A stretch of DNA of 64,000 nt from positions 1,024,001-1,088,000 of the forward strand of contig CAVZZO010000001.1 in the NCBI GenBank assembly GCA_963779755.1, in the 5' to 3' direction. Made by a program: the position numbers and the translations under genes. Positions 3,562 to 45,532 of this stretch are shown one piece after another. Each line of letters begins with the position of its first letter. Position 1 is the first letter of the stretch. Origin of the DNA: an uncultured Gemmatimonadales bacterium. Its GTDB lineage: Bacteria; Gemmatimonadota; Gemmatimonadetes; Gemmatimonadales; GWC2-71-9. The notes beneath the pieces were generated by a model, which was not told where the DNA came from, did not search any database, and saw nothing but the letters and a program-made list of their open reading frames with translations.

Positions 3562-4845
3562 TCAGCCCCCGCGAACGCCGAGGGTGGCATTGACCGTCTG
3601 CCGCTCGCCGTCGCGCAGGAAGACGATCTTTACCTGGTCTCCCGCGCGGTGGCTGCGCAGGGCGGAGGTCATGGCCTGCAGATCGGGGATGTCCATCTCG
3701 CCGATCCGGACGATGATGTCGTTGCCCTTGAGGCCGGCCTGGTCGGCCGGGCTGCCGGCGCGTACGCCGGTGATGCGCACCCCGCCGGGGCTGCCCGCCA
3801 TGTCGGGGATGGTTCCCAGATAGGCGCCGTACCCGGGGGTCACGGAGCCGGGCTCGTCGTGGGCGGGGAGCTGGGCGATGGGCTTCGCGTCTTCGAAGGT
3901 GAGCGGTCCCGGCCGGTCGGCCAGGGCGCGCACGATGCTGGCGGTGAAATCGGCGACCCGTACCAGGCCATCCACGTTGATCTTCTGCCAGTCGTCGGTG
4001 GTCCGGTGATAATCCTCGTGCAGGTCGGTAAAGACATGCAGGACGGGCAGTTTGGCGGCAAAGAACGAGGACTGATCGCTGGGGCCGTAGCCGTTTCCCT
4101 GTTGCCGCAGGTCGAACCCGGCGTACCAGTTCAGGGAATCGAGCATGGCGGGGAACTCGTCGGCCGTTTCGGTGCCGTAGACGATGAGCCGGCGGTTCCG
4201 TAGCCGGCCCACCATGTCCATGTTGACCATGGCCTCGGTGGCGCTCAGCGGATAGAGCGGATGCTGGACGTAATATCCGGAGCCGAGCAGGCCCAGCTCC
4301 TCGCCGCTGAAGGCGATGAAGACGACGGTCCGCAGGGGCGGATTGGCGGCCAGCCGCGCGGCGATGTGGATGAGCGCCGCGGTACCGCTGGCGTTGTCGT
4401 CGGCGCCGTTGTGGATCCGCCCCATGCTGTCGGGGTCGAGGCTCCCGAATCGCCCGTCGCCGAGGTGGTCGTAATGGGCACCCACCACGACCGTCTGGTT
4501 CCGCAGGACCGGGTCGCGGCCGGGCAGGACGCCGATCACGTTCCGGCCGATGACATCGCCCAGCCGGGCCTGGGCCGCCGCGGGGGCATTTTCCGAGATG
4601 GGAAAGGCCTGGAACCAGCCCTGGGAGCCGGGCTGGAGGCCGGCCTGCGCAAAGCGGCGGGCAAGATATTGGGCCGCGGAATCGGCGCCCGGTGAACCGG
4701 TGAGCCGGCCCCCCAGGGCGTCCGACGCCAGATACTGGACGTCCCGGAGGATCTGATAGGCCTCCGGCGTTGTCTGTGCGCGCGCCGGGCTTCCGCCCAG
4801 CGAAACCAGAGCCAGGAAGAAGGCAAAGAAGATCTGTCTCCGCAT
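3562..4845 (-). CDS. secreted M28 family peptidase with C-terminal PDZ domain
   Basis: Signal peptide (MRRQIFF...ARA-Q), GAHYDHLG, GADDNASG, GEELGLLGS, PSDQ, DYH; PDZ YLGTIPD...GSPADQAGL. Confidence 0.92.
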   Translation of the reverse strand: MRRQIFFAFFLALVSLGGSPARAQTTPEAYQILRDVQYLASDALGGRLTGSPGADSAAQYLARRFAQAGLQPGSQGWFQAFPISENAPAAAQARLGDVIGRNVIGVLPGRDPVLRNQTVVVGAHYDHLGDGRFGSLDPDSMGRIHNGADDNASGTAALIHIAARLAANPPLRTVVFIAFSGEELGLLGSGYYVQHPLYPLSATEAMVNMDMVGRLRNRRLIVYGTETADEFPAMLDSLNWYAGFDLRQQGNGYGPSDQSSFFAAKLPVLHVFTDLHEDYHRTTDDWQKINVDGLVRVADFTASIVRALADRPGPLTFEDAKPIAQLPAHDEPGSVTPGYGAYLGTIPDMAGSPGGVRITGVRAGSPADQAGLKGNDIIVRIGEMDIPDLQAMTSALRSHRAGDQVKIVFLRDGERQTVNATLGVRGG

Positions 4846-8571: not shown

Positions 8572-8667
8572 GAACAGGGGAACAGGGGAACAGGGGAACA
8601 GGGAAAGGGAGAAAGGGGAACAGGGGAAGGTCGGTTACCTTTCCCTGTTCCCCTTTCCCTGTTGCCC
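8572..8667. repeat. 8-mer tandem repeat (GAACAGGG) with inverted complement forming a hairpin
   Basis: Four exact units 8572-8603 plus degenerate units; inverted arm CCTTTCCCTGTTCCCCTTTCCCTGTT from 8638. Confidence 0.9.
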
Positions 8668-26734: not shown

Positions 26735-27607
26735 ATGACCGCCCAGCCAGCCGGTCCGTCCAGCCACCTGCTTCACCGCCTCCGTGCCCCCGAGCCTCTC
26801 GTGGCGGTCGAGCTGCGGCCGCCCCGCACCGGGCTTGCCGCCGGCGAGAGCATGGATCTCTGGATCGACCTCTATCATGCCATCGCCCGCCTGGCGCGAC
26901 GGGACACTCACATTTTCCTGACGGACAATGCCGTGGGTCAGGCGGAGGAGGAGAACCTCGGCCACCTGATGTCGAACCTGGCGGGGGATGTCCCGCCGGC
27001 CCGGGTGGCGCCGTTCCTCACCTGCAAGCATACGCTGGAGTATTGCCTGCTCTATGCGGGCCGCGCCGCCGCGTACGGCATCGAGGCGATGACCGTGGTG
27101 GGGGGCGATTCAACGGGCGGCATTCCCCGGTGCGTGCCCCACGCCTATCTCCTGCGCCAGGCCATCCGGCAGCGCCTGCCGGGACTGACGCTGGGCGGCT
27201 GGGTGAATCCTCATGCCGATCCGGATCAGCAGATCGATTACCTGGTGCGCGAGGGTGCGGAGGCGGATTACTACCTGACGCAGATCGTGTCCCACCACGA
27301 TCTGCCGCGGATTGAGCGGTTTCTGGCCCGGGCCGGGCAACGCGGGGTAGCGACGCCCGGGGTCTTCGGCGTGTTCTTCTACCGCAGTGCCAACCCCCGC
27401 ACCCTGGCCCAGCTGGGGCACTACCTCCCGGTGCCGGCCGAGGGCATCACGAGGGAGTTCCAGGCGGGCCTGTCGGCCACCGATATCTGCGCCCGCACCA
27501 TCCGGGTGCTCCGGGAGGCCGGGGCGGAGAAGGTGTACGTCTGTAATCTGGGGTTTCAGCAGGTCGCGCGGCGCTATCAGGAGCTCATCGAACGGCTGGA
27601 GGGCTGA
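26735..27607 (+). CDS. divergent methylenetetrahydrofolate reductase (MetF)-like protein
   Basis: VELRPPR, LTDN, LTCK, GGD, LTQIV approximate the MTHFR barrel motifs. Confidence 0.7.
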   Translation: MTAQPAGPSSHLLHRLRAPEPLVAVELRPPRTGLAAGESMDLWIDLYHAIARLARRDTHIFLTDNAVGQAEEENLGHLMSNLAGDVPPARVAPFLTCKHTLEYCLLYAGRAAAYGIEAMTVVGGDSTGGIPRCVPHAYLLRQAIRQRLPGLTLGGWVNPHADPDQQIDYLVREGAEADYYLTQIVSHHDLPRIERFLARAGQRGVATPGVFGVFFYRSANPRTLAQLGHYLPVPAEGITREFQAGLSATDICARTIRVLREAGAEKVYVCNLGFQQVARRYQELIERLEG

Positions 27608-29427
27608 ACCGGCCGGCCAGGACTTCCAGCGCGAGCGGCACCCGGCCGAAGGGTGCGCTCACCTGGGCCCCCGCCACCGCCCCGTCCAGCGCGTCCAGGA
27701 CTTCCCGCGCGATCGCCACGCCCTCCGCCAGCGCTGCCTCGGCGCCGTGCTCCTGCGCCCCGCGCATCCGCTCCAGCGTGGCGGGCGGGATAACAATGCC
27801 GGGAACTTCGTTGGCCAGGAACTCCGCATTCCGCAGCGACAGAAAGGGCCAGAGGCCGGCCAGCACCGGCAGGCCGAGCGCCAGCACCCGGGGCAGGATA
27901 CGCACGAGCCCCGCGGCGTCGAACACCGGCTGGGTGACGATGAACTCGGCGCCTGCCTCCACCTTCCAGGCCAGCCGCTCCAGCTCGCGCTCGAGATCGC
28001 CGGCGCCCTGGTTGAACGCCACGCCGATCACGAACCGGGTGGGAGGCCCGATGCTGTTGCCCCCCGGATCGAGTCCCCGGTTGAGCTGGTGCACCACGTT
28101 GGTGAGCCCGATACTGTCGATGTCGAATACCGCCGTGGTATCGGGATAGGGCCCCATCACCGGGGGATCGCCCGTCACCAGCAGCACGTTCCTGAGCCCG
28201 ACGGCGGCAGCGCCCAGCAGGTCGCTCACCATGCCGAGCATGTTGCGATCCCGGCAGGTGTAGTGGACGATCGGCTCGATGCCCACCTCATGGCGGATCA
28301 GCATGGCCGCCGCCAGCACCCCCATACGGCTGTGGGCCCGCGGGCTGTCCAGCACGCTGACGGCATCCACGCCGGCTGCATGGAGGGTGCGCGCCTGGTC
28401 CACCAGCGCCGCGGGATCCCACCCTCTGGGCGGCAGCAGTTCGACGCTGGTCACGAATTGGCCGGCCGCCAGACGCCGCCCCAGCTCGCTCCGCTCGGCC
28501 ATCGGAGCAGGCTCCGCGGCGCGGGTTTCCGGGGCTGCCACCGCCGGCGCTCCCGGCGCGATCATGCGGGGCTGCAGGGTGGTGACGTAATCGCGGATCT
28601 TCCGGATGTGGTCCGGCGTGGTGCCGCAGCAGCCGCCCACGAAGCGCACCCCGGCCCGGATGAGACGGCGCGCGTAGCGGGCCATGTACTCGGGGCTGCT
28701 CAGGTAGATCCGCCGGTCGCCGACGGCGCGCGGGAGGCCGGCGTTGGGCTGGGCGGAGAGGGGCCGGTCGGTGGCGCCCGCCATGCGTTCCACGGCATCG
28801 AGCATGGGGACCGGGCCCACCGAGCAGTTCAGCCCCACCACGTCGGCGCCCAGGGCCGCGAGGCGGGCGGCGATGGTCTCGGCGGGCGCCCCGTAGGGTG
28901 TATCGCCGTCCTCGCCCACCGTCATCTGCGCCACGACCGGCAGGTCCGTCAGCCGGCGCACGGCGCGGAAGGCGGCCTCGATCTCGTCCAGATCGGCGAA
29001 GGTCTCCAGCACGAAGCCGTCTACCCCGCCCTCCAGCAGCCCGCTGACCTGCCGGGCGAAGAAGGCGGCGGCCTCGTCCCGGCTGGTGGGCCCCCAGGGC
29101 TCGATCCGGATGCCGAGCGGGCCGATGGCCCCCGCCACTGCGGCGCGCCCGTTGGCGGCCCGCCGGGCCAGCGCGACGGCGGCGCGGTTGATCTCCTCGG
29201 TGCGTTCTTCGAGGCCGTAGGCCGAGAGCTTCACCGGGTTGGCGCCGAAGGTGTTGGTCTCGAGTATCTCCGCCCCGGCCCGGACGTAGGCCCGGTGCAC
29301 GTCCTCCACCTGCTCCGGTTCCCGCAGGTTCAGCTCGTCATAGCAGACGTTCACGAAGATGCCGCGATCGTAGAGCATCGTGCCCATGGCCCCGTCGAAA
29401 ACATGGACCCGCCCGTCGGCGATGAAC

Positions 29428-29444
<17 letters not shown>
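27585..29444 (-). CDS. yitJ: bifunctional homocysteine S-methyltransferase / methylenetetrahydrofolate reductase (YitJ-like)
   Basis: [20 protein letters not shown]-terminal VELLPP, HYTCRD, TGDPP, TQPVFD. Confidence 0.93.
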
Positions 29445-33165
<3,721 letters not shown>

Positions 33166-33183
33166 AGTGGGCGGGGCTCCTTC

Positions 33184-33218
33184 AACACAAAGGCCTCGGG
33201 CTAAAACGGCCGCGAGGC
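33184..33218 (-). terminator. putative SAM-dependent intrinsic terminator of metH leader
   Basis: Minus strand GCCTCG(C)GGC-CGTTTTA-GCCCGAGGC followed by CTTTGTGTT. Confidence 0.5.
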
Positions 33219-33222
33219 TGCG

Positions 33223-33270
33223 TTTTAGCGGGATGTTTAACGTGGCCGCAATCAGCGCAAATCGCCACGA
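33223..33270 (-). ncRNA. SAM-II (SAM_alpha-like) riboswitch aptamer upstream of metH
   Basis: Minus strand TCGTGGCGATTTGCGCTGATTGCGGCCACGTTAAACATCCCGCTAAAA: P1 CGTGGC/GCCACG, GATTT loop, TTGC pairing with GC(T)AA, as in SAM-II pseudoknots; location fits. Confidence 0.85.
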
Positions 33271-33343
33271 ACTGGGGTCAGGATTCAGGAGTGAGGAGTG
33301 AAGGCCGCGGCCCCTCCCCTCGCCCCGCCCGACCGTATAGTCT

Positions 33344-33418
33344 GTCCTGCCGTCCTGCCGTCCTGCCGTCCTGCCGTCCTGCCGTCCTGCCGTCCTGCCG
33401 TCCTGCCGTCCTGCCGTC
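33344..33418. repeat. perfect 8-mer tandem repeat (GTCCTGCC)x9 plus GTC
   Basis: Counted directly. Confidence 0.97.
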
Positions 33419-33461
33419 TTCAGATATAGCACCGCCTCTCATCAAAGACCAGTCGCGCCCT

Positions 33462-33761
33462 CTACAGCCCCAGCCGTTCCGCCGCCTCGCCGGGGGTAAT
33501 GCCTGCGATGATGACGGTCTTTCGCCGTCCGCTCTGGCCACTGGCGATCGTCACGGCCGACCGGCCCACCCGCAGCCGGCCCGCCAGGAAGCGGATCAGC
33601 GCGTCGTTGGCGGCGCCGTCGACCGGCGGGGAGGTGAGGCGAACGCGGAGCCGGCCGTCGTGGAGGCCGGCCAGGGCGCTGCGGGAGGCCCGGGGCTGCA
33701 CCAGCAGGTGCAACCGGACGCCCGTAGCACAGGGTTCCACCGGGGCATGGCCCGGCGTCAC
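33462..33761 (-). CDS. DUF167 / YggU family protein
   Basis: VQPRASR, PPVDGAANDALIRFLA, SGQSGRRK; GTG start overlapping yggT stop inferred. Confidence 0.9.
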   Translation of the reverse strand: MTPGHAPVEPCATGVRLHLLVQPRASRSALAGLHDGRLRVRLTSPPVDGAANDALIRFLAGRLRVGRSAVTIASGQSGRRKTVIIAGITPGEAAERLGL

Positions 33762-34339
33762 GCCCGCAGCAGCTGGAAGAGAAACCACCGGATGATGATC
33801 AGTGCGAACCAGGCGACCAGGGGACTGAAGTCGAGCGGCCCCATGGCGGGCAGCAGGCGCCGGATGGGCACCACCAGCCAGTCGGTGAGCCGGTAGGCCA
33901 GACGCATGCCGCCGCCGAAGCGCGACGAGCCGATCCAGCTGCCGATCACCCGCAGCAGGAGGGCCAGGGCCAGGATCCAGTAGGCCAGGTTGATGGCCAG
34001 CCCCATCCAGGCGCGGGGCCCGCCGTGGGCGAGCGCCCCGGCGTAGAACACGGCATTGATGATCCAGTTGACCACCGCCAGCAGCAGCAGCCCGCCCACC
34101 AGAACGACGCCGGCGAGCCAGAGCGGGGCGTCCTGCGGGTTGCCGCCGAACCGCGCGACCCGTCGCTCGATGGGACGGAGGAGGGGATCGCTGATGGATC
34201 GTACCAGCCTGGGCCAGGGGCCGAACGCCTTCAAGCGGCCGCGGCGCACGGCCCAGTGCGTCGCCACCACCACACAGGCCAGCAGAAAGGCCCCCAGGAC
34301 TACCCAGCGCGTGACCGCGCCAATCCAGTAGACGATCAT
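33758..34339 (-). CDS. yggT: YggT family membrane protein
   Basis: SDPLLRPI, LTDWLVVPIRRLLP, LDFSPLVA. Confidence 0.9.
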   Translation of the reverse strand: MIVYWIGAVTRWVVLGAFLLACVVVATHWAVRRGRLKAFGPWPRLVRSISDPLLRPIERRVARFGGNPQDAPLWLAGVVLVGGLLLLAVVNWIINAVFYAGALAHGGPRAWMGLAINLAYWILALALLLRVIGSWIGSSRFGGGMRLAYRLTDWLVVPIRRLLPAMGPLDFSPLVAWFALIIIRWFLFQLLRA

Positions 34340-34816: not shown

Positions 34817-34879
34817 CACAGATAACGCAGATGAGACAGATAACACAGATGGCACAGATGACTCAGATTACACGGATGA
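34817..34879. repeat. degenerate 9-mer tandem repeat (consensus CACAGATRA) x7
   Basis: cacagataa cgcagatga gacagataa cacagatgg cacagatga ctcagatta cacggatga. Confidence 0.88.
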
Positions 34880-34974
34880 CACCGATTCCTCCAATCCGGT
34901 CGCTGCCTCCGGCCCTGGGCCCGGCAAGGATGGGCCGGCCCGAGACGGCTGCTGATCTGTGCCGTCGGTGGATA

Positions 34975-40538: not shown

Positions 40539-42167
40539 ATGAGTGCCATTCTCTCGATCCCCACCCCCCGCAACGAGCCGGTCCTCAGCTACGCGCCCGG
40601 CACTCCGGCCCGCGCCGAGCTGAAGGACGTGCTGAAGCGGATGGGCGGGGAGATTCCCGAGATTCCCTGTGTCGTCGGCGGCAAGGAGGTCCGCACCGGC
40701 AAGTTGGCGGACGTGGTGGCGCCGCACGATCATCGCCACGTGGTCGCCCGGGTGCACCAGGCCGATGCCGCGACCATCCAGCAGGCGGTGGCGGCCGCCC
40801 GCGAGGCCCAGCGGGAATGGGCCGCCTGGAGCTATCAGGACCGGCTGGCGGTCTTTCTCCGCGCGGCAGACCTGCTGGCCGGCCCCTGGCGGCAGGAAGT
40901 GAACGCCGCCACCATGCTGGGCCAGAGCAAGACGCCCCACCAGGCAGAAATCGACAGCGCCTGCGAACTGATCGACTTTCTGCGTTTCAATCCCTGGTAC
41001 GCCGAACGGATCTACCGGGAGCAGCCGGAGTCGCCCGCCGGCGTCTGGAACCGGATGGACCACCGGCCGCTCGAAGGGTTCGTCTACGCCATCACGCCCT
41101 TCAATTTCACGTCCATCGGCGGCAACCTGCCCACCGCGCCCGCCATGCTGGGCAACGCGGTGCTCTGGAAGCCGGCGGGTACCGCGGTCTACAGCAACTG
41201 GCTGTTCTTCCGGGTCCTGGAGGAGGCGGGCCTGCCGCCCGGTGTGATCAACTTCGTGCCCGGCCCGAGCGGCATGGTGACCGACCTGCTCCTGGCCGAC
41301 CGGCACCTGGCCGGTATCCACTTCACCGGGTCGACCGAGGTCTTTCAGCTGCTGTGGCGGAAGGTCGCCGAGCACCTGGAGGGCTACGCCGGCTATCCCC
41401 GCGTGGTGGGCGAGACCGGCGGGAAGGATTTCATCGTCGCCCATCCCAGCGCCGACCCGGCAGCCCTGGCGGTCGGGATGGTGCGCGGCGCGTTCGAGTA
41501 CCAGGGACAGAAGTGCAGCGCCGCCTCCCGCGCCTACGTGCCGCAGTCGCTCTGGCCCGAGGTGCGGGAGCGGGTCCTGGCCATGATGCAGGAAATCCGC
41601 ATGGGAGACGTCACCGACTTCCGCACCTTCATGGGGGCGGTGATCGACGCCCGGGCCTTCCAGCGGCTCAAGGGGTATCTGGACGAAGCCGCCGGGGCGA
41701 AGGGCGTCAGCGTTCTCGCCGGCGGAAAGTGCGACGACCGCACCGGCTGGTTCGTCGAGCCGACCCTGCTCCAGGTGGAAGACCCGCGCTACCGCACCAT
41801 GTGCGAGGAGCTGTTCGGGCCGGTGCTGACCCTGCACGTCTACCCGGACGCCCGCTGGTCCGAGACGCTCGATCTGGTCGACAGCACCAGCCCCTACGCG
41901 CTCACCGGCGCCGTCTTCGCGCGCGACCGGCGGGCCGTGGTGGAAGCGGAAGCCCGGTTGCGGAACGCGGCGGGCAACTTCTACATCAACGATAAGCCGA
42001 CCGGCGCGGTGGTGGGCCAGCAGCCGTTTGGCGGCGCCCGCGCCAGCGGCACCAACGATAAGGCGGGCTCCATGCTGAACCTGATCCGCTGGATCAGCCC
42101 CCGGTCGATCAAGGAAACTTTCGTGCCGCCGGCGGAGTGGACGTATCCGTATATGGGTGAGAAGTGA
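40539..42167 (+). CDS. pruA: L-glutamate gamma-semialdehyde (P5C) dehydrogenase
   Basis: NEPVLSYAPG, QAEIDSACE, PFNF, FTGST, GETGGK, YQGQKCSA, EELFGP, QQPFGGARASGTNDKAG. Confidence 0.96.
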   Translation: MSAILSIPTPRNEPVLSYAPGTPARAELKDVLKRMGGEIPEIPCVVGGKEVRTGKLADVVAPHDHRHVVARVHQADAATIQQAVAAAREAQREWAAWSYQDRLAVFLRAADLLAGPWRQEVNAATMLGQSKTPHQAEIDSACELIDFLRFNPWYAERIYREQPESPAGVWNRMDHRPLEGFVYAITPFNFTSIGGNLPTAPAMLGNAVLWKPAGTAVYSNWLFFRVLEEAGLPPGVINFVPGPSGMVTDLLLADRHLAGIHFTGSTEVFQLLWRKVAEHLEGYAGYPRVVGETGGKDFIVAHPSADPAALAVGMVRGAFEYQGQKCSAASRAYVPQSLWPEVRERVLAMMQEIRMGDVTDFRTFMGAVIDARAFQRLKGYLDEAAGAKGVSVLAGGKCDDRTGWFVEPTLLQVEDPRYRTMCEELFGPVLTLHVYPDARWSETLDLVDSTSPYALTGAVFARDRRAVVEAEARLRNAAGNFYINDKPTGAVVGQQPFGGARASGTNDKAGSMLNLIRWISPRSIKETFVPPAEWTYPYMGEK

Positions 42168-42293
42168 GCGTGAGGCGTAAAACGTGAGACGTAAGGCGTG
42201 AGGGGTGAGGCGTAAGACGTGAGGTGTGAGGCGTGAGGGGTGAGGGGTAAGGTGTAAGACGCGAGGCGTAAGACGTGAGGCGTGAGGAGTGAG
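42168..42293. repeat. degenerate 7-mer tandem repeat (consensus RNGTRAG) x18
   Basis: gcgtgag gcgtaaa acgtgag acgtaag ... gagtgag in unbroken 7-nt register after the pruA stop. Confidence 0.93.
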
Positions 42294-42346
42294 ATGTCAG
42301 CCGGCGTGACCGCGTAGCTCGCACGTCTTCGGCAACGGTACCGGGT

Positions 42347-43641: not shown

Positions 43642-45396
43642 ATGCGATTCCCTTCCATAGATGCCCTGGCGCGTCACGCGCGCTCGGCCCTGACGCGGTT
43701 TCCCTGGACCATGGCGGCGGCGACGGTGGCGACGGTGGCGGGAATGGTGGCCGTGGGGCACGGAGGCCGGGACCAGTGGGTGCGGCTCACCATGGTGGCC
43801 CTGCTGGGCCTGCCGCTCACGATGGCCGTGAGCCTGCTGGGCTGGCGCCGAGGCTGGGCCGGGGTGAAAACGGGCCTGGTCCAGGTGGCGGGAATCCTCG
43901 TGCTGGCGGCGTTCTACTTCGCCTGGCCCGGCCCGGAGGAAAAGCACAACGCCATTCGCTATTTCCAGCTGAGCGCCGGGCTGCACCTGCTGGTGGCCTT
44001 TCTGCCGTTTGGGGGCGAACGGGACCAGCCGGCGTTCTGGCAATACAACCGCCGTCTGTTCGAAGGCTTCCTGCGGGCGGCCTTGTTCTCCGCCGTGCTC
44101 TTCCTCGGCCTGGCCGTCGCCCTGGTGTCGCTGGACCAGCTGTTCGGCGTCCGGGTTCCGGAGGAGGCCTACGGACGACTCTGGATCCTGCTGGCCTTTC
44201 TGGTCCACCCCTGGATTTTCGCCAGCGGCCTGCCGAAGGAAGTCGGAGACCTGACGCAGGCGAGAGACTATCCCCGCGGCCTCAAGATCTTTACCCAGTA
44301 CGTGCTCACGCCGCTGGTCGCGATCTATCTCGTGATGCTGACCGCCTACCTGGGGAAGATCGTCATCAGCGGATCCTGGCCCAGCGGATGGGTGGGGTAT
44401 CTGGTGGCCAGCGTGGCGGTGACGGGAGTGCTCGGCTTCCTCCTGGTCCACCCGCTGCGGCTGGAGCAGGGCGAGGCCTGGATCCGGACCTACTCACGCT
44501 GGCTCTTCATCGGGCTGATTCCGGCCGCGATCATGTTTCTGCTCGCGCTGTGGAAACGGGCGGAGCCCTACGGTCTGACGGAGCTGCGGGTACTGGGATT
44601 CCTGCTGGGTGGGTGGCTGCTGGGGCTGGCGCTGTTCTATACGCTGCGCCGCAATTCCGGTATCCGGGTCATTCCGGTCTCACTGGCGGCGATTCTGCTG
44701 CTGTCGCTGTACGGTCCCGCCAGCGCTACCCGGATCGCCCTCAGGAGCCAGGCGGCCCGGCTGCGGGCCCTGCTGCAGGACGCCGGCCCGAAGGCGGCGG
44801 CCGAGGCCCGGACCCGGGAGATCAGTGCGGCGGCGCGGTTTCTTCTGGAGCACGGCGCGCAGCACGAGCTGCGCCAGGCGCTGCGACGGGGAATTCCCCA
44901 GGCGGATTCGCTGCTGGCCGGGAGCGATTCGCTGACCGACAGCACGGTGGCGGCGGTCCTGGGGACGGCGGGTCTGTACTACGAGCCGAGCGCTTCCAAC
45001 TCGCGCGGGTACATCTCGCTGTCGCTCCGGTCCGATTCCTCGGCCGTCGCGATCGCCGGCTACGATTATGAGGCGGAGGTCGGCGGCCCCGGCGAGCGAA
45101 GCGTTTTCGCTGGAGGGGATACCCTGCGGGTGCGCTCCGATTCCGGCGGGGCCGCGGTGGAACTGGTGTTTCCGGGAGCCAATCCCCTGGTGATTCCCCT
45201 CGACTCCGTCCTGCAGCCGCCCGCCCCCGGTGCGATGTGGGAGCGGCAGGTTCCGGCGGCCCGGATGCTGGTGCGGGCTGAGCGGGAGGACCTCCGTGCG
45301 ATGCTGCTGCTGAACTGGATCCGTGCCGAGCGGCAGGCGAATACCCTGCGGGTGACCGAGTGGCGCGGCAGGCTCTATTGGACGGGACGGGAATAG
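43642..45396 (+). CDS. DUF4153-like multi-pass membrane protein
   Basis: ALTRFP, FWQYN, YVLTPLVAIY, SWPSGWV, YGLTELR, SQAARL. Confidence 0.8.
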   Translation: MRFPSIDALARHARSALTRFPWTMAAATVATVAGMVAVGHGGRDQWVRLTMVALLGLPLTMAVSLLGWRRGWAGVKTGLVQVAGILVLAAFYFAWPGPEEKHNAIRYFQLSAGLHLLVAFLPFGGERDQPAFWQYNRRLFEGFLRAALFSAVLFLGLAVALVSLDQLFGVRVPEEAYGRLWILLAFLVHPWIFASGLPKEVGDLTQARDYPRGLKIFTQYVLTPLVAIYLVMLTAYLGKIVISGSWPSGWVGYLVASVAVTGVLGFLLVHPLRLEQGEAWIRTYSRWLFIGLIPAAIMFLLALWKRAEPYGLTELRVLGFLLGGWLLGLALFYTLRRNSGIRVIPVSLAAILLLSLYGPASATRIALRSQAARLRALLQDAGPKAAAEARTREISAAARFLLEHGAQHELRQALRRGIPQADSLLAGSDSLTDSTVAAVLGTAGLYYEPSASNSRGYISLSLRSDSSAVAIAGYDYEAEVGGPGERSVFAGGDTLRVRSDSGGAAVELVFPGANPLVIPLDSVLQPPAPGAMWERQVPAARMLVRAEREDLRAMLLLNWIRAERQANTLRVTEWRGRLYWTGRE

Positions 45397-45532
45397 GACG
45401 GGAAGAAGACGGGAATAGGACGGGAAGAAGACGGGAATAGGACGGGAAGAAGACGGGAATAGGACGGGAACCTGTTTCAGTCCTGCTCCCGTCTTTCTCC
45501 CGTCCTTCTCCCGTCCTATTCCCGTCCTTTTT
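45386..45532. repeat. alternating 11-mer repeat (GACGGGAATAG/GACGGGAAGAA) with inverted 11-mer array and T5 tract
   Basis: Seven full units plus a partial, 45386-45470; four inverted units 45483-45526; TTTTT 45528-45532. Confidence 0.93.

Follow-up and report, generated by a model that had tools for sequence, protein, structure and literature searches.

A SAM-II class riboswitch that probably acts as a transcriptional OFF switch of a metH-yitJ operon

We found that the leader of metH in the stretch of DNA analyzed here (64 kb; referred to below as the window) contains a SAM-II class riboswitch that probably acts as a transcriptional OFF switch of a metH-yitJ operon. We put the probability of this reading at about three in four. 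In the proposed mechanism, the 3' strand of the aptamer pseudoknot (CGCUAAAA) would be unoccupied when SAM is low, and an antiterminator (hairpin A) would arise once the complement of that strand, CGUUUUAGC, is transcribed. CGUUUUAGC occupies the loop of a putative terminator stem-loop (hairpin B) and the start of its 3' arm. Hairpin A would trap the 5' arm of B within its own loop, so that RNA polymerase reads on into metH. When SAM is high, the aptamer would retain CGCUAA in the P2b pseudoknot and hairpin A would be excluded. Hairpin B would then fold ahead of a U-rich tail, and transcription would end near 33184-33190. We infer SAM binding, kinetic trapping by A and termination at the tail. 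An initial annotation of this DNA had proposed a switch of this kind; its aptamer, its genes and the mutual exclusivity of the two hairpins held up, and the arrangement recurs in relatives, but its premise that SAM-II acts by occluding the ribosome-binding site and its proposed anti-RBS pairing did not.

The covariance-model search for SAM_alpha/SAM-II that the initial annotation had suggested returned a match covering model positions 1-79 of 79, with a score that exceeded the gathering score of 36 (Table 1). This was the only Rfam family that reached threshold in the 64 kb, with both strands searched (128 kb of strand). SAM-V (RF01826) and the SAM-II long-loop family (RF01726) stayed below their gathering scores in the 64-kb window, and the Rfam search of the window returned no match to SAM-I (RF00162). 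The match is on the same strand as metH and in the sense orientation, and it stops 37 nt before the GTG start codon. By the covariance model, the aptamer is a true member of the SAM-II class.

Table 1. Positions of the metH-yitJ genes and of the leader elements in the window
Feature	Positions	Strand	Details
yitJ-like gene, bifunctional homocysteine S-methyltransferase / methylenetetrahydrofolate reductase	27585-29444	-	S-methyl_trans and MTHFR domains
metH, cobalamin-dependent methionine synthase	29428-33165	-	1245 aa; in-frame GTG start at 33165
Ribosome-binding site, AAGGAG	33182-33177	-	11 nt before the GTG start
U-rich tail, CUUUGUGUU	33192-33184	-	6 U of 9, interrupted by G
Hairpin B, putative terminator stem-loop	33218-33193	-	-14.8 kcal/mol
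Hairpin A, putative antiterminator, GCUAAAACG / CGUUUUAGC plus inner GCC/GGC stem	33229-33200	-	-13.8 kcal/mol
SAM-II aptamer match (Rfam SAM_alpha, RF00521)	33278-33202	-	45.3 bits, E = 5.4e-07
P1 5' arm, CGUGGC	33269-33264	-	pairs with GCCACG
Loop strand, GAUUU	33263-33259	-	invariant in 13 of 13 leaders
P2b 5' strand, UUGCG	33251-33247	-	faces CGCUAA
P1 3' arm, GCCACG	33246-33241	-	pairs with CGUGGC
P2b 3' strand, CGCUAA (SAM-binding strand)	33230-33225	-	common to hairpin A

All of the SAM-II hallmarks that the initial annotation had described in this minus-strand leader were present where it had placed them. We aligned the window aptamer with those of 12 homologous leaders (n = 13; the loci are described below). 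P1 was paired in 96.2% of cells, and four of its six pairs were changed on both sides. None of 500 shuffles reached its covariation score, and controls in which the partner strand was slid along the alignment were 25-63% paired. The invariant GAUUU loop would correspond to the third strand of the P2b triplex around SAM in the published SAM-II structure. P2b itself (UUGC facing GC(U)AA, with a bulged U) comprises four pairs that were 100% paired in 13 of 13 leaders with zero variation, and its support in these sequences is conservation, not covariation. The GCUAAA motif was invariant in the 13 aligned leaders and was found in all 16 leaders examined. The two strands of a possible P2a (GCUG at 33256-33253 and CAGC at 33220-33217) are both present as well; if formed, this helix would overlap the first two pairs of hairpin B.

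The identity of the downstream genes was also confirmed. The metH product is full-length and has all five expected Pfam domains (S-methyl_trans, Pterin_bind, B12-binding_2, B12-binding and Met_synt_B12), and the yitJ-like protein matched NF006396 with 716.6 bits against a cut-off of 453. The end of metH and the start of the yitJ-like gene overlap by 17 nt (29428-29444), which suggests translational coupling within a riboswitch-controlled operon.

Between the aptamer core and the start codon, the leader can form two hairpins that share their arms. Hairpin A has a 9-bp stem and the inner 3-bp stem, and hairpin B is 26 nt long with a 9-bp stem in which one C is bulged. The 5' arm of A (33229-33221) overlaps the P2b strand (33230-33225), the 3' arm of A (33208-33200) is made up of the loop of B and the first two nucleotides of the 3' arm of B, and the 5' arm of B sits within the loop of A. 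Because the arms are shared, A and B are mutually exclusive, and the claim that A captures the SAM-binding strand was borne out by these overlaps and by the predicted folds. We predicted the folds of nascent transcripts that began at P1 and had progressively later 3' ends. Hairpin A was the best fold of transcripts ending at 33200 or 33196, and B took over from 33193. When CGCUAAAA was held unpaired, mimicking a SAM-bound pseudoknot, A never formed and B was the best fold from 33193 on. This is the pattern that would be expected of a kinetically controlled OFF switch.

A simple promoter/terminator scan of positions 32900-33900 returned no promoter-like and no terminator-like sites; hairpin B was missed, since its stem is bulged and its U run is interrupted. 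T-rich 9-mers (at least 6 T) were rare in the window, which is 69.6% G+C, occurring at 101 of 127,982 positions. Hairpins of -12 kcal/mol or lower directly before such a 9-mer gave only 15 rows over both strands, and B was among the shortest of them; this rarity sets B apart. In a crude, GC3-based gene list, no other hairpin-plus-T-tail site of the window was near the 3' end of a gene, so canonical intrinsic terminators may be rare or little used in this DNA.

To place the leader among its relatives, we compared residues 1-350 of MetH with one genome per species. At least 599 stretches were matched, and the best 80 were analyzed; the highest identity to the window MetH was 71% among the matches listed, so neither the source organism nor a close relative is among these 80. 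Ten of these best 80 loci had, immediately upstream of metH, a SAM_alpha match that reached the gathering score; seven of them are from Marinimicrobia/Fidelibacterota (L010, L025, L058, L063, L067, L074 and L080) and three are from Gemmatimonadota (L043, L052 and L057). Six further loci were examined. Five of them (L041, L062, L030, L016 and L023) had SAM_alpha in the same place with scores below the gathering score (26.8-33.1 bits), and it was absent from that place in the sixth (L046). The layout of aptamer, hairpin and U-rich tail before metH therefore recurs in 15 (10 + 5) of the best 80 of at least 599 loci. Ahead of the start codon, each of the 16 SAM-II leaders (the window and these 15) has a hairpin and, after it, a tail in which at least 5 of 9 nucleotides are U. 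The tail is a clean run of seven U in L052, and it is U-rich and interrupted in L043 and L057. SAM-I was found in 11 of the same best 80 loci, and 10 of these aptamers were within approximately 400 nt upstream of the MetH match.

The recurrence of the element bears on the possibility that the aptamer match arose by chance and that the hairpins reflect nothing more than the usual folding of G+C-rich sequence. The whole 121-nt leader folded no better than shuffled sequences (z = -0.69), and the window duplex between the pseudoknot strand and the terminator, which is the antiterminator duplex, was equalled by 30 of 300 dinucleotide shuffles, as would be expected if the resemblance were fortuitous. 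Against this stand an Rfam score above the curated cut-off for the sole match in 128 kb of strand, the correct position and orientation before a methionine gene, the same element in the same place before metH in related loci, and the covariation of P1. We consider a chance resemblance extremely unlikely.

A quick tree of the MetH N-terminal sequences placed the window beside L043 (Gemmatimonadales) and four rows from Lysobacterales/Gammaproteobacteria, with SH-aLRT values of 84-88; judged from these sequences, the tree gives the window no well-supported placement. One clade of 12 rows (SH-aLRT 90; L010, L025, L030, L041, L052, L057, L058, L062, L063, L067, L074 and L080) had a SAM-II leader in 12 of 12. 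SAM-II leaders were also found elsewhere in the tree, in the window and L043, and in L016 and L023. This distribution hints that the SAM-II leader and metH may have been inherited or transferred together. Two of the loci contained other riboswitch classes. A Flavobacteriales locus (L051) has a SAM-I aptamer before metH together with an opposite-facing SAM-II long-loop aptamer (RF01726, 59.8 bits), both within one intergenic region (441-500 on the minus strand and 568-666 on the plus strand). In L069, an SAH riboswitch is located at 4301-4378, downstream of the metH segment.

The genes on the other side of the leader provide information about the host. The gene just upstream of the leader encodes a DUF167/YggU protein, and the gene before that encodes a YGGT protein. 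Among the best 80 of at least 599 loci, a DUF167 homologue was in the same position only in L043 (52%, 90 aa) and L052 (44%), and the YGGT gene recurred only in L052 (38% over 170 aa). Both loci are from Gemmatimonadota, and the P1, loop and hairpin A of the window are nearly identical to their counterparts in L043. The suggestion in the initial annotation that the host is probably not a proteobacterium is supported by inference from this common gene order. A Gemmatimonadota origin is probable. An NCBIfam scan of 32 window proteins found ordinary housekeeping and transport genes and no taxonomic marker. An unassigned 603-aa window protein led, in the ESM Atlas, to DUF4153 clusters that are most commonly from Bacteroidota, which was uninformative about the host.

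The DNA between the DUF167 gene and the aptamer contains a perfect tandem array (33344-33418) whose 8-nt unit reads GGCAGGAC on the metH strand, with 9.4 copies and 100% matches. In L043 and L052 the corresponding spacers measure only about 50-75 nt and have no octamer array. There are more tandem arrays in the window, at 8572-8628, 34817-34886, 42164-42294 and 45385-45529, with periods of 7-11 nt and 4-19 copies. By the crude gene list these short-period arrays seem to lie between genes, and it looks as though intergenic minisatellites are a general trait of this genome. The three Gemmatimonadota loci (L043, approximately 470-480; L057, approximately 1855-1865; L052, approximately 1860-1870) have a TATATT/TAGATT-like motif 20-40 nt before P1 that may be a -10 element. 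In the window, CTATAC is found approximately 60 nt upstream of P1 (approximately 33330-33336), immediately after the octamer array. The 32900-33900 scan called no sigma-70-type promoter.

We then used the homologous leaders to compare the conservation of the two hairpins. For these analyses, we determined how many shuffles reached the observed covariation score, and how much pairing remained when the partner strand was moved by 1-3 columns (slid controls). In nine Marinimicrobia-type leaders, aligned without L025 because of its long insert, the terminator was 91.5% paired, four of seven pairs were changed on both sides, and none of 500 shuffles reached its score. In four Gemmatimonadota-type leaders, the outer stem of the terminator was 95.8% paired, with three of six pairs changed on both sides and 5 of 500 shuffles reaching the score. 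The antiterminator was 88.3% paired in the nine Marinimicrobia-type leaders (slid controls, 25-43%) and 85.3% paired in the four Gemmatimonadota-type leaders (slid controls, 3-54%). Only one of its nine pairs was changed on both sides in the former group (G-C, G-U and U-A), and none of nine in the latter. Thus, the comparison of A and B in relatives that the initial annotation had called for came out differently for the two hairpins: B covaries, but A shows almost no covariation. The near lack of compensatory change in the antiterminator is explained by its 5' arm, which is the invariant aptamer core. Its complement sits in the loop or 3' shoulder of the terminator. The support for the antiterminator in these alignments is conservation, not covariation.

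We also folded the homologous leaders at an intermediate stage, using transcripts that stopped 5 nt short of the end of the terminator. In 13 of the 16 leaders, at least three of the six GCUAAA bases were paired into the terminator region. The exceptions were L063 and L074 (0 of 6 in each) and L043 (2 of 6); the value for L043 arose because an over-long terminator was picked and the cut was placed after the core hairpin. In isolated segments with the pseudoknot strand free, the terminator was the best fold in 12 of 13, and the antiterminator was best only in L025. The terminator also won in 12 of 13 segments whether the pseudoknot strand was blocked or free. Because the terminator wins at equilibrium, the switch model needs kinetic trapping. 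Pairing of the pseudoknot strand with the terminator gave a duplex that beat dinucleotide shuffles at the 5% level or better in only 7 of 13 leaders. The case for a switch is built on kinetic trapping and conservation; it draws on neither equilibrium energies nor covariation of helix A.

These results are relevant to an alternative in which the aptamer is real and hairpin B is a constitutive attenuator, with SAM acting through RNA stability, Rho-dependent termination or translation. We regard this alternative as unlikely, although several of the observations would fit it: B is at least as stable as A (Table 1), the terminator is the preferred fold of 12 of 13 segments despite a free pseudoknot strand, and the antiterminator is without covariation. 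There is also a precedent in the metA leader of Sinorhizobium meliloti, where, in the available part of the report (PMC9373788), a validated terminator follows a SAM-II aptamer and no response to SAM is predicted. What a constitutive attenuator would leave unexplained is that the complement of the invariant core has been retained in the loop or shoulder of the terminator across three lineages, where drift was possible. In addition, A is the best nascent fold until the 3' arm of B is made, and one antiterminator pair is doubly changed. These features argue against a constitutive attenuator.

In agreement with the initial annotation, the ribosome-binding site of metH is located about 40 nt downstream of, and outside, the pseudoknot. 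The 3' arm of B and the tail can pair with AAGGAG in a hairpin of -8.7 kcal/mol (33170-33200), and this pairing is also part of the minimum-energy fold of the whole leader. When A was enforced, AAGGAG had a mean unpaired probability of 0.18; enforcing B raised it to 0.52. The pairing needs the 3' arm of B, and this arm becomes available only once A has formed, so the effect would be to damp the ON state. No equivalent pairing was seen in L043, L052 or L057. The initial annotation had suggested that a CCTT/AAGG pairing might add translational control; we rejected such cooperative control because the pairing forms in the ON (low-SAM) state, a direction opposite to repression by SAM, and is not conserved in the three relatives. 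The anti-RBS pairing in the window is probably incidental. A bolder addition, which would apply to the window only, is that the freed terminator arm masks the ribosome-binding site in the ON state and produces an incoherent, dampened response, as proposed for S. meliloti.

The same data make it quite improbable that control is mainly translational, with SAM binding hiding the ribosome-binding site as in the Sargasso Sea metX SAM-II RNA. The Marinimicrobia-type leaders do read AAAGG after GCUAAA, which is Shine-Dalgarno-like, and the end of B and the tail in the window are complementary to AAGGAG. However, the ribosome-binding site in the window is far from the pseudoknot strand, the predicted pairing occurs at low SAM, which is the wrong direction for repression by SAM, and it is absent from the three Gemmatimonadota relatives.

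The arrangement that we favor, termination controlled by a SAM-II aptamer, has precedents. Reports of intrinsic terminators downstream of SAM-II aptamers date from 2005 and 2007 (PMC1273637, PMC2258182), and such terminators are described also in PMC9373788 and PMC4239095, as far as the available text of these papers goes. The initial annotation had held that SAM-II aptamers usually occlude an adjacent ribosome-binding site, which would make a terminator unusual, and the available parts of PMC1273637, PMC2258182 and PMC9373788 contradict this. For the metZ leader of S. meliloti, SAM-triggered termination that yields the sRNA RZ is predicted in the accessible part of PMC9373788. A beta-proteobacterial metX/metZ element (Leyn 2014) was proposed, in the accessible part of that paper, to use a terminator-antiterminator mechanism (PMC4239095), and excerpts from McCown 2017 (PMC5473149) later term it canonical SAM-II. 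Given these published terminators, the arrangement in the window is already of a known kind.

The SAM_alpha targets in Proteobacteria named in the available text of Leyn 2014 (PMC4239095) are metA, metX, metY, metZ, metC, hom and metW, and metH is not among the targets named there. SAM-II in Gemmatimonadota was not found in the literature searched, and the string 'Gemmatimon' has no occurrence in PMC5473149. We tentatively propose that a single compact SAM-II design is common to the metH leaders of Gemmatimonadota, Marinimicrobia (Fidelibacterota) and some Betaproteobacteria, and that in it the 3' arm of the antiterminator is a conserved complement of GCUAAA within the terminator loop; we consider this generalization possible rather than probable. 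If it is true, SAM-II would extend to phyla and to a target, metH, that are unnamed in the literature searched.

The riboswitch in the window involves no new principle. In terms of annotation, SAM probably represses metH and the yitJ-like gene by way of a SAM-II riboswitch, and a likely Gemmatimonadota example is added to a class best known from Proteobacteria. The idea of SAM-II as a mainly translational switch is corrected as well, with terminators already present in the founding papers, to judge from the parts available. The 16 leaders form a small comparative set in which the antiterminator is unusually readable, since the terminator loop contains the complement of the aptamer core. This set could serve as a compact model of kinetic, co-transcriptional control by a pseudoknot aptamer.

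Three known systems can be compared with the leader in the window. The closest are the SAM-II leaders with terminators in Proteobacteria, for which the following holds within the available accounts. The leaders of Agrobacterium tumefaciens metA, S. meliloti metZ and beta-proteobacterial metX/metZ have P1, the P2 pseudoknot and GCUAAA like the window, and they share with it a stem-loop and U tract between the pseudoknot and the open reading frame, a predicted OFF logic and a target in the methionine pathway. The window differs from them in its downstream metH-yitJ genes, its interrupted U tail and its probable Gemmatimonadota host. The second system is the Sargasso Sea metX SAM-II RNA, the structural model system, which has the same aptamer core and pseudoknot strand as the window. 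According to the available part of PMC9373788, the pseudoknot of metX SAM-II sequesters the Shine-Dalgarno sequence, and regulation is presumed to be translational. In contrast, the ribosome-binding site in the window is about 40 nt further on, with a terminator-like hairpin between.

The third comparison is with the SAM-I (S-box) leaders of metH in Bacteroidota and of yitJ in Bacillus, whose yitJ carries an S-box leader. These resemble the window in their ligand, in the kind of target and in the OFF logic of a terminator, but the SAM-I aptamer (RF00162) has an unrelated fold, with a four-way junction.
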